Part shown: one piece after another, positions 50,370 to 52,245 of the stretch
How positions within the stretch are numbered: position 1 is the stretch's first letter
Layout: the number at the start of each line of letters is the position of its first letter
DNA from: Shigella phage vB_SflM_004
Strand: one strand, 5' to 3'
Sequence record: MK295205
Length of the DNA stretch: 64,000 nucleotides
Translations under genes and position numbers: made by a program
The notes under the pieces: generated by a model
Told to the model about the DNA's origin: nothing
The model's input: only the letters and a program-made list of their open reading frames with translations
The model's database searches: none

Positions 50370-50715
50370 TCACCAACATCACTTAAGAGTCTTTCTAAGG
50401 GGTTTTTAAGTGATGCTCGGTAAGGTTCGGTTCGGTTGGGTGTGGTATGGTGGTGTAAGGTGGTGTAAGGTGGTGTCAGGTGTAGTATGGTGCGGTGAGG
50501 TTCGGTATGGGTAGTTAGTCTCAGCTACATTAAAATGAGACTTACCTTTTTAAAAGGTCTTTAATAGGGTCTTTTAATAAGGTGATGTGAGGTGGGGTCT
50601 GGTCTGGTTTGGTAAGGCGCGGTCTGGTTTGGTAAGGTAAGGCTCGGTAGGATGTATGGTAGTAGCCACGTTAAAAATCTACAGGCATCTAAGAAATCTT
50701 CTGTTGAGGGTTCTT
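50370..50715. repeat. GGT-rich composite repeat element, copy 1 (two GGT-rich tracts around a hairpin/T-run core)
   Basis: Tracts of the form ggttcggttcggttgggtgtggtatggtggtgtaagg...; core gggtagttagtctcagctacattaaaatgagac + ttttaaaaggtctttaa; repeated at 51805-52245. Confidence 0.7.
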
Positions 50716-50743
50716 TACAAACAACTTAACAATTAACTAAAGT

Positions 50744-51340
50744 GTGGAGCTAAATGCTATGAAACTGTTAAATATCAAAATCACTGGTACTCGTCCTTTT
50801 CTGAGCCATGCAGATACTCTGTCAGACCCATTAAACCCTCTGACAAAATATCACAAGTCTCTGTCAAGTAAACGTAAAAAGACTGACGAAGACTATGCTC
50901 TCTTAGCAGAAAGCCAACTGGTAACTTCTTGTTACTATGATGAGCAACTAGGTTTAGGTTTGAAGAGTGAGACGCTTGTAACTGGCACTGGTGCAAAACT
51001 CAACAAACTTGGTAAGGTAATTGACCGAGCCATTATGCTGACAGATGTAGTCTTCCCAATGACTATTAAGAACTGTCCAGCAAACCCACAAGAACTAGCT
51101 AAGAACCAAGACTTTATCTATGCGAAGTCTGTTAAGATTGGCACAGCACGAGTCATGAGCTACCGTCCAATCTTCCGTGACTGGTCTGTAGAATTTGGTT
51201 TGATGTTCGATGAAGAACAAATTACCAAAGAGGAACTCTTGATGGTTCTTGAAAATGCTGGTAACCTTTGTGGTGTAGGTGATTGGCGTCCACGCTTTGG
51301 TCGTTTCTCTGTAGAAGTTATTTCAGAAGGTAATGTTTAA
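50744..51340 (+). CDS. hypothetical protein
   Basis: 198-aa ORF; contains a 36-nt stretch identical to the 3-prime end of the DNA polymerase gene (encoding [12 protein letters not shown]). Confidence 0.45.
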
Positions 51341-51342
51341 TT

Positions 51343-51783
51343 ATGAATACAAAAGCATTAGCAGCAAAATTTAGTTACGGTGATACTGTATCACACTCTG
51401 AGATGGACACCTTCTTAGGTATTGTGAAGCCGACTTATCAAGGTGACATTGTTAAGTACGAAGATGAAATGAAAGCTTACGCACTTACACGTCTAAACCG
51501 ACTTGAGAAGTTTATTGAGAAGCTTCTTAAAGAAGAGAAGATTTATCTGGTCACTTCAATGGGTGTTGGTTATCGTGTGGTGGAACCTAAGCATCAAGCA
51601 ACTATTGCAAAACGTAAAATGTCTGGTAAGATTGGTCGTGCTTTAAAACAAGCCACTCAAGCGATTGAGAATGTGAACACTATGGTACTTAGCCATCAAG
51701 AACGTTCACGACTGATTGAACAGCAAAACCACTTAGCTGCTATGAAAGCTAACATTAATAAGCAACGTAGAAAACCTTTCTAA
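51343..51783 (+). CDS. hypothetical protein
   Basis: 146-aa ORF; start overlaps the upstream stop. Confidence 0.45.
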   Translation: MNTKALAAKFSYGDTVSHSEMDTFLGIVKPTYQGDIVKYEDEMKAYALTRLNRLEKFIEKLLKEEKIYLVTSMGVGYRVVEPKHQATIAKRKMSGKIGRALKQATQAIENVNTMVLSHQERSRLIEQQNHLAAMKANINKQRRKPF

Positions 51784-51794
51784 GTTGACTAGGT

Positions 51795-51820
51795 AGCCTC
51801 TTCGGAGGCTCCTTTTTAAA
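51795..51820 (+). terminator. rho-independent terminator
   Basis: AGCCTCttcgGAGGCT + CCTTTTT after ORF 51343-51783. Confidence 0.5.
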
Positions 51821-52245
51821 AGGTCTTTAAACAGGGTCTTTTAATGAGGTAGTGTTCGGTCTGGTTAGGTCTGGTCTAGTTCGGTTTGGCAAGGTGGGGT
51901 TAGGTATGGGTAGTTAATCGGAGCTACATAAAAATTCGATTGCACCACTTAAGAGTCTTTAAATTATATTCGAAAGAGTATCTCATAGGGTTTTTAAGTG
52001 TTGTTTGGTATGGTACGGTTCAGTGGTGTATGGTTTGGTTCGGTGGTGTAAGGTGTGGTCCGGTAAGGTATGGGTAGTTAGTCTCAGCTACATTAAAATG
52101 AGACTTATCTTTTTAAAAGGTCTTTAAACAGGGTCTTTTAATGAGGCTGTGCTCGGTACGATTCGGTTGGGTCAGGTAAGGTTGGCGAGGTCAGGTCGGG
52201 TGCGGAAGGATGGCAGTAGCCTTATAAAAAATCTGCCAAATAAGC
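51805..52245. repeat. GGT-rich composite repeat elements, one half copy plus one full copy
   Basis: Same hairpin/T-run core and GGT-rich tracts as 50370-50715, in direct orientation. Confidence 0.7.

Follow-up and report, generated by a model that had tools for sequence, protein, structure and literature searches.

The VIPR (Viral Interference Programmable Repeat) systems, which were described in two 2026 preprints (bioRxiv 10.64898/2026.04.26.720920 and 10.64898/2026.04.26.720927), represent a recently reported class of RNA-guided DNA recognition and have been proposed as an ancestor of the CRISPR RAMPs. They combine a phage-borne RAMP protein, Vipr, with vrRNAs, in which 9-16 GGY/NN repeats are followed by an invariant 3' tail, and a vap accessory gene accompanies vipr (10.64898/2026.04.26.720920,.720927). 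In the SUSP1 clade, this tail is a pseudoknot and the natural targets converge on an E. coli satellite (10.64898/2026.04.26.720920,.720927). The SUSP1 system has been characterized by small-RNA sequencing (sRNA-seq), Vipr pull-down, GFP repression and lambda defence (10.64898/2026.04.26.720920,.720927): its units yield vrRNAs of ~100 nt, as seen by sRNA-seq, which co-purify with Vipr, and the gene directly downstream of vipr, named vap1, enhances protection. Vipr-bound vrRNAs of ~100 nt and target silencing are reported for the P. fulva system as well as for SUSP1 (10.64898/2026.04.26.720920,.720927). Here we describe a locus at positions 50370-52262 (+ strand) of a 64,000-nt stretch of Shigella phage vB_SflM_004 (sequence record MK295205; this 64-kb stretch is referred to as the window in the following), which is very probably a type II VIPR system of the SUSP1 clade, comprising vrRNA guides, Vipr and Vap1.

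A first-pass annotation of this stretch, made from the sequence alone, had pointed to GGT-rich repeat elements flanking a two-gene module of unknown function. The elements lie where it had placed them, and of the roles it had considered, that of small structured or G-rich RNA genes was essentially right, as near-identical units in SUSP1 give rise to ~100-nt vrRNAs; the module consists of vipr and vap1. While the VIPR finding itself is already known from the two preprints, the locus is nearly identical to the characterized SUSP1 system, and we can name a specific natural target for one vB_SflM_004 guide, vrRNA4, and independently confirm the gapped code by which these guides read their targets.

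Vipr and Vap1

The two open reading frames (ORFs) bracketed by the repeats are those of the first-pass annotation, with the correction that the first of them, listed from a GTG at 50744, probably begins at an ATG at 50759. This ORF1, vipr (50759..51340, + strand), encodes a Cas7-like RAMP protein of 193 amino acids (aa) and is followed by vap1 (51343..51783, + strand), which encodes the VIPR accessory protein of 146 aa. Neither ORF belongs to a named family in Pfam, PHROGs, PADLOC or NCBIfam. An Rfam scan of the locus, which the first-pass annotation had recommended for the repeat element, yielded sub-threshold chance matches only, including the DUF2815 RNA at E=9.8, and in GenBank records the genes are labelled 'hypothetical' and the vrRNAs 'repeat_region' or 'DR_4'. 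With no part of the locus named in any of these five resources, the practical value of its identification lies in annotation.

A profile built from 30 homologs of ORF1 matched one solved structure, PDB 36pp_D, the 'SUSP1 Vipr protein', over its full length (E=1.6e-84), and it was this match that led us to both VIPR preprints. The Vipr protein of the window is 92% identical to that of SUSP1; among the RNA-contact residues reported for the latter, H17, K33, E71, R138, C173, D177, W178 and R179 are kept, and M72 is replaced by T. Likewise, the vap1 product is 98% identical to that of the gene found directly 3' of vipr in SUSP1. The AlphaFold (AF2) model of ORF1 has a predicted local distance difference test (pLDDT) score of 91.9, and its best matches in a Foldseek search against the PDB are type VII Cas7 and Csm3 (E 5e-5 to 1e-3, template-modelling score up to 0.54). 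The modelled structure thus has a Cas7/Csm3-like RAMP fold, and the glycine-rich loop typical of RAMPs is present.

Given this near-identity, we carry the mechanism worked out for SUSP1 over to vB_SflM_004, where the locus is presumably expressed, assembled into ribonucleoprotein particles and employed in silencing. Each repeat unit would encode one vrRNA, with 12-18 GGY-NN repeats capped by a 3' pseudoknot. Vipr protomers would polymerise on it into a helical filament, one protomer per repeat, in which the GGY triplets are buried and the NN dinucleotides presented. The latter would pair with the bases of double-stranded target DNA, in which every third base is passed over, and the R-loop or triplex formed in this way would block transcription of the target, with Vap1 enhancing the effect. 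The targets would be competing mobile elements, here a satellite-like island of ~11-12 kb in E. coli.

Repeat units, their periodicity and the tail pseudoknot

The locus contains five homologous units of ~130-170 bp, all on the + strand, of which two (U1 and U2) lie upstream and three (U3-U5) downstream of both ORFs. The first-pass annotation had described them as full and half copies of one element; the copies are real, but a 'full copy' is in fact two units and a 'half copy' is one. In every unit, a leader of ~35-55 nt is followed by a phase-locked tract of pentamers and by a conserved tail of ~34 nt. In the first unit, vrRNA1 (50377..50551, +), the leader inverted repeat spans 50377-50418, the tract of 18 repeats 50419-50508 and the tail pseudoknot 50509-50542, followed by a T-run; in vrRNA2 (50546..50715, +), the leader (50546-50580) and a tract of 14 repeats (50581-50650) precede a tail at about 50650-50683. 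Downstream of the genes, vrRNA3 (51812..51945, +) has its leader at 51812-51847, a tract of 12 repeats at 51848-51907 and the tail pseudoknot at 51908-51941. It is followed by vrRNA4 (51943..52113, +), with the leader at 51943-51996, 15 repeats at 51997-52071 and the tail pseudoknot at 52072-52105, again with a T-run, and by vrRNA5 (52109..52262, +), with the leader at 52109-52144, 12 repeats within 59 nt at 52145-52203 and the tail pseudoknot at 52204-52237.

The pentamers are conserved in a way that separates a fixed triplet from a free dinucleotide. The window and 18 related loci together yielded 70 units, of which 53 are distinct, and the following figures refer to these 53. The tract between the conserved flanks measures 45-95 nt (mode, 55-65 nt), and its length is a multiple of 5 nt in 50 units; two of the three exceptions are from the window, namely vrRNA2 (69 nt) and vrRNA5 (with a 1-nt deletion), each of which is 1 nt short. 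Position 1 of the pentamer is G in a fraction of.81, T in.13, A in.07 and C in 0; position 2 is G in.97; and position 3 is T in.90 and C in.10, that is, always a pyrimidine. By contrast with this GGY triplet, positions 4 and 5 (NN) are near-random. This pattern of conservation argues that the 5-nt periodicity is under selection. A scan of both strands found no phase-locked GGTNN runs elsewhere in the 64 kb. The first-pass annotation had judged the tracts not obviously coding. We likewise discarded a coding function, since no reading frame is compatible with a period of 5 nt and since GGTAA, GGTAG and GGTGA repeats are frequent.

Comparison with Citrobacter phage Moogle, whose locus is 93.5% identical, leads to a similar picture. 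The leaders, most tails and most of both genes are ~100% identical between the two phages, and the differences are concentrated in the NN positions of four tracts; further clusters of differences are found in a patch within vipr, in the vrRNA2 tail and in the region upstream of the promoter.

The 'conserved core with a hairpin and T-run' of the first-pass annotation is present in the tails, although its hairpin is just one stem of an H-type pseudoknot, in which columns 3-6 pair with 17-20 (stem 1) and columns 9-14 with 29-34 (stem 2). Across 20 tail variants, 93% of the cells pair and 9 of the 10 pairs show changes on both sides, compared with at most 40% pairing in slid controls. This covariation matches the pseudoknot that has been reported and resolved by cryo-EM for SUSP1, which supports the reading of these units as vrRNAs. 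Among the tails of the window, stem 2 of vrRNA3 is formed by ATCGG and TCGAT with one G-U pair, and stem 1 of vrRNA2 is disrupted (GTGG to ATGT).

Taken by themselves, tracts of this kind could also be binding sites or sponges for a TRAP-like ring protein, whose sites they resemble in their triplet plus 2-nt period and in their mode of 11-13 repeats, or they could form G-quadruplexes, an R-loop origin or arrays of primase sites, for which the position of the locus among replication genes might speak. We give practically no credence to this group of explanations. The conserved partner of the tracts is a Cas7-like protein, which has been solved as a helical filament on this very RNA, and the NN positions carry target information (see below). 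Furthermore, the runs of G comprise just 2 nt and G-quadruplexes leave the pyrimidine requirement at position 3 unexplained, and the cumulative GC skew has no turning point at the locus. These candidates, together with a BoxA/nut-like or Csp-binding role for the GTCTTT motifs of the leaders, were dropped once the conserved neighbour had been recognized as Vipr. Nor did we find support for the more general proposal that the repeats are regulatory tracts.

The leaders themselves share a common design. Each is an AT-rich inverted repeat, either TTAAAAG/CTTTTAA or CACTTAAGA/TTTTAAGTG, which closes a loop containing GTCTTT...AGGGT; the loop of the U4 leader carries an insertion of roughly 20 nt. 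Within the window, the motif is confined to the vrRNA locus, and shuffled sequences gave 0 chance matches. We found no discussion of a leader role in the texts of the VIPR preprints; a promoter, an insulator and a processing signal are candidate roles. Upstream of the first unit, a scan revealed a putative sigma-70-like promoter (50319..50346, +; CTGACT-16-TATACT, 9 of 12 consensus matches), and TTGACA-16-TATACT is found at the equivalent place in phages wV8 and ASO1A. At the 3' end of vap1, an intrinsic-terminator-like hairpin (51795..51816, +), AGCCTCTTCGGAGGCT, precedes a T-run.

Guide targets and the condition of this copy

We searched for targets by comparing the NN pairs of each guide with sequences in which one base is skipped per repeat, with a threshold of at least 80% of the NN positions. 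Under this rule, 28 of 49 distinct guides from the clade match six E. coli satellite loci; with a skip of 0, 2 or 3 nt, or when shuffled, none of the 49 matches these loci. The published 1-nt-skip code, which reads two of five guide bases against two of three target bases, is therewith independently reproduced.

For the window, the clearest case is vrRNA4. A ten-repeat gapped pattern derived from this guide retrieved five contigs from the IMG/VR database, and in four of them (L139-L142), 27 of the 30 NN positions of the complete guide agree, including an unbroken run of 13 perfect repeats. The same score of 27/30 is reached in 8 of 13 satellite loci, compared with a maximum of 21-22 for shuffled guides. 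The target site, ATTATTAATCACGTCTGGGATATTCTCAGGAAAAGTACCAAAACC, is located inside a gene for a 236-aa protein, annotated as 'transposase' or hypothetical, and the skipped bases fall on the wobble positions of its codons. The site recurs in E. coli chromosomes, and a 1.8-kb stretch around it matches 471 of 5,426 genomes. The gene is part of a satellite-like island of ~11-12 kb in E. coli chromosomes, which is integrated at wrbA, at yecE or near tonB and which carries a serine recombinase, a Dit-like baseplate protein, a tape measure protein, an HNH protein, an HTH protein and Dam.

The remaining guides fared less well. In 7 satellite loci, vrRNA2 has a syntenic match of 21/28 (75%), ~200 nt upstream of the vrRNA4 target gene, which is borderline. 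The ten-repeat gapped patterns of vrRNA1, vrRNA3 and vrRNA5 gave 0 matches in IMG/VR and these guides have no significant match in the 13 satellite loci, where vrRNA1 also finds no target once its internal duplication is removed. Self-targets at 80% or above are absent from the window; across the window and the loci compared with it, its guides reach at best 67-73% under the 1-nt-skip rule. As a separate observation, 2 of the 13 satellite-island loci carry a vrRNA of their own, with a phage-type 'b' tail (GGGTGGATGGTAGTAGCCAC...), at 460-514 on the - strand of L140 and at 12921-12980 on the + strand of L147; a profile search for Vipr homologs found none in the 13 loci.

The vipr gene of the window has a peculiarity of its own. 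A patch of 36 nt (50953..50988, +) matches the 3' terminus of the phage's own DNA polymerase gene (47306-47341) at 100% identity, with strand and frame preserved, and rewrites residues 66-80 in helix 1 of Vipr, the canonical sequence of which is FVMNGEMIEACIKS. The vipr genes of Moogle, wV8 and dune have this canonical sequence, and the patch is not found in the other Ounavirinae vipr genes of our phage collection, whose products share at most 93.3% identity with the window protein. The corresponding end of the DNA polymerase gene in phage Alf5 adjoins a gene for an HNH homing endonuclease.

Several points weigh against the identification of the locus as a VIPR system. The foreign patch overwrites a part of helix 1 that includes M72 of the pyrimidine pocket; stem 1 of the vrRNA2 pseudoknot is broken, and the vrRNA2 and vrRNA5 tracts are off phase by 1 nt. 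A clear natural target is at hand for just one of the five guides, with vrRNA2 borderline and vrRNA1, vrRNA3 and vrRNA5 matching nothing in the data scanned. In a tblastn search of satellite proteins against the 64-kb window, no homology was found, and the satellite-helper link of the published work is not confirmed for this phage. Lastly, the two VIPR papers on which the identification draws are preprints.

Owing to the patch, the broken stem and the off-phase tracts, the system may be impaired, or the assembly may hold errors. Accordingly, one may ask whether this is a VIPR locus by descent that is decaying or already inactive here, a relic rather than a functional silencer, with the M72 substitution, the defects in vrRNA2 and vrRNA5 and the four guides that have no clear target as its symptoms. 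We take this seriously but consider it unlikely. The patch is in frame and leaves the vipr ORF intact, with the other tested contact residues conserved; vap1, the leaders and four tails are ~100% identical to those of relatives; and vrRNA4 retains its 27/30 match. Moreover, the 1-nt deletions could be sequencing errors; the ligase region upstream also deviates from Moogle and is split into several ORFs. The broken tail stem of vrRNA2 and the off-phase tracts of vrRNA2 and vrRNA5 may reflect real decay or sequencing errors.

In this upstream region (48889-50150), the DNA ligase gene is not a single ORF, unlike in Moogle, and is partly replaced by unrelated ORFs. One ligase fragment (49516-50001) has the HNH-like motif VDHKNGDGWDN at its start, and nine consecutive Gs follow just downstream, at about 50026-50034; the disruption may be due to a homing-endonuclease insertion, to sequencing errors or to both.

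With respect to the origin of the vipr patch, we have considered that it might be an escape from, or the repair scar of, an attack on vipr by a rival element, whether by means of a vrRNA directed against VIPR or of a homing endonuclease. A second part of this idea is that the orphan vrRNAs of vipr-less Felix-O1-like phages and of the vipr-less satellites may borrow Vipr from a co-infecting phage. We think this rather improbable. Searches with sense and antisense 8-repeat patterns for a vrRNA that targets the canonical form of the patch gave 0 matches in viral and genome contigs.

Elsewhere in the window, positions 4100-5600 are densely populated by unrelated repeats, both tandem and interspersed, with periods of 84, 141, 22 and 11 nt, in which CTTAACA-type 11-mers recur.

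Relatives and comparison with known systems

The source phage is Felix-O1-like, and its VIPR locus has many relatives; in a protein comparison, ORF1 proved 100% identical to a protein of Shigella phage vB_SflM_004. As the first-pass annotation had advised, we searched phage genomes for the element and found it in 231 phage records; 117 Ounavirinae records carry vipr. Related loci have between 1 and 5 units. Roughly one in two Felix-O1-like records has retained one or two vrRNA-like units in the absence of vipr and vap1. In one of these vipr-less loci (L008, 3009-3216), both guides have kept satellite matches, of 17/18 and 21/26. Such orphan guides may depend on Vipr supplied in trans. The genome papers on Felix O1, wV8 and UAB_Phi87 do not describe these repeats, and we found no Felixounavirus transcriptome in the literature. 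The occurrence of units without vipr in about half of the relatives, as well as the 36-nt patch in vipr, may be new observations.

The gain and loss of the module bear on another proposal of the first-pass annotation, namely that the units are primarily recombination substrates which mobilise the two genes. It has some appeal, since ASO1A lacks vipr and vap1 and has a single hybrid unit (L004, 2440-2600), in which a leader of the U1 type is joined to a tail of the U5 type, and since records with units outnumber those with vipr and the number of units varies. As an account of function, however, we consider it highly improbable. It leaves unexplained the strict 5-nt phase, the conservation of GGY next to random NN, the covariation of the pseudoknot and the satellite matches, which are obtained with a 1-nt skip only. 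Loss of a module between direct repeats is an expected by-product of the vrRNA arrangement, and in this sense the recombination is real, as the hybrid unit of ASO1A and the many records devoid of vipr attest.

Beyond the Felix-O1-like phages, we scanned IMG/VR with the pattern (GGTNN)6GGT and removed simple microsatellites; the counts are taken from the matches listed and are hence lower bounds. At the least, many unrelated viral contigs contain multi-unit GGY-NN arrays with ~9-15 repeats per unit and variable NN. A family of ~200-aa proteins, of which ORF1 is a member, adjoins such variable arrays in at least 36 loci including the window, i.e. in at least 35 other IMG/VR loci outside the Felix clade. 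According to a clustering of neighbouring ORFs, these Vipr homologs are encoded on the strand of the array in all but one locus among the matches listed. They share a C-terminal motif, G(I/V)GD(W/F/Y)RPxxGxFG, which resembles the glycine-rich loop of RAMPs.

Other features of these distant loci differ from those of the window. A second protein, of ~160 aa and with the motif FEW(N/D)D...AG(E)xYRxQQAR, is encoded next to the GGY-NN arrays of six unrelated IMG/VR loci among the matches listed (L019, 3257-3742; L044, 11014-11511; L048, 7855-8337; L077, 531-1061; L115, 4419-4928; L132, 634-1098) and probably represents another vap family. Far longer arrays, of 7-18 vrRNA-like units, are found in L028, L038, L115, L114, L044 and L027. 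Their linkers are short, unlike those of the window (e.g. GGCTAatg, GGCAGtt, cgca and ggaatggtttaatgaatttaattt), and some long arrays directly adjoin a Shine-Dalgarno sequence and an ATG.

Compared with the described systems, the vB_SflM_004 locus is closest to SUSP1. Both have the same gene order (vrRNA(s), vipr, vap1 and a vrRNA array) and the same position between the ligase gene and the downstream operon, and they agree in their GGY-NN tracts, in the types of tail pseudoknot and in the family of satellite islands that they target. They differ in that the window has two upstream vrRNAs, whereas SUSP1 has one, and in the NN content of the guides. With its 18 repeats, vrRNA1 of the window exceeds the quoted range of 9-16; its vipr gene carries the patch derived from the DNA polymerase gene, and the tail of vrRNA2 is degenerate.

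A more distant likeness exists to the class 1 CRISPR-Cas systems, in which Cas7 and Csm3 form filaments on crRNA. The RAMP fold with its glycine-rich loop, the fixed RNA step occupied by each protomer, the periodic flipping of bases and the programmable guide with an invariant handle are common to both. VIPR, by contrast, is phage-borne, has neither CRISPR repeats and spacers nor the adaptation genes cas1 and cas2, and lacks a nuclease; its step is 5 nt of guide to 3 nt of target rather than 6 to 6, and only two of five guide bases pair. The remark of the first-pass annotation that the tracts are not CRISPR-like therefore holds for the sequence pattern, with 5-nt GGY-NN repeats and a two-gene module in place of identical 24-40-nt repeats and cas1/cas2, but it misses the function, since the tracts are guide RNAs to which a Cas7-like RAMP protein binds. 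It is through the RAMP fold only that the locus is related to CRISPR-Cas. Finally, the binding of TRAP to the trp leader RNA in Bacillus offers an analogy, with triplets separated by 2-nt spacers and one subunit per triplet; TRAP, however, is an 11-mer ring that recognizes (G/U)AG, has no guide function and is not homologous to Vipr.

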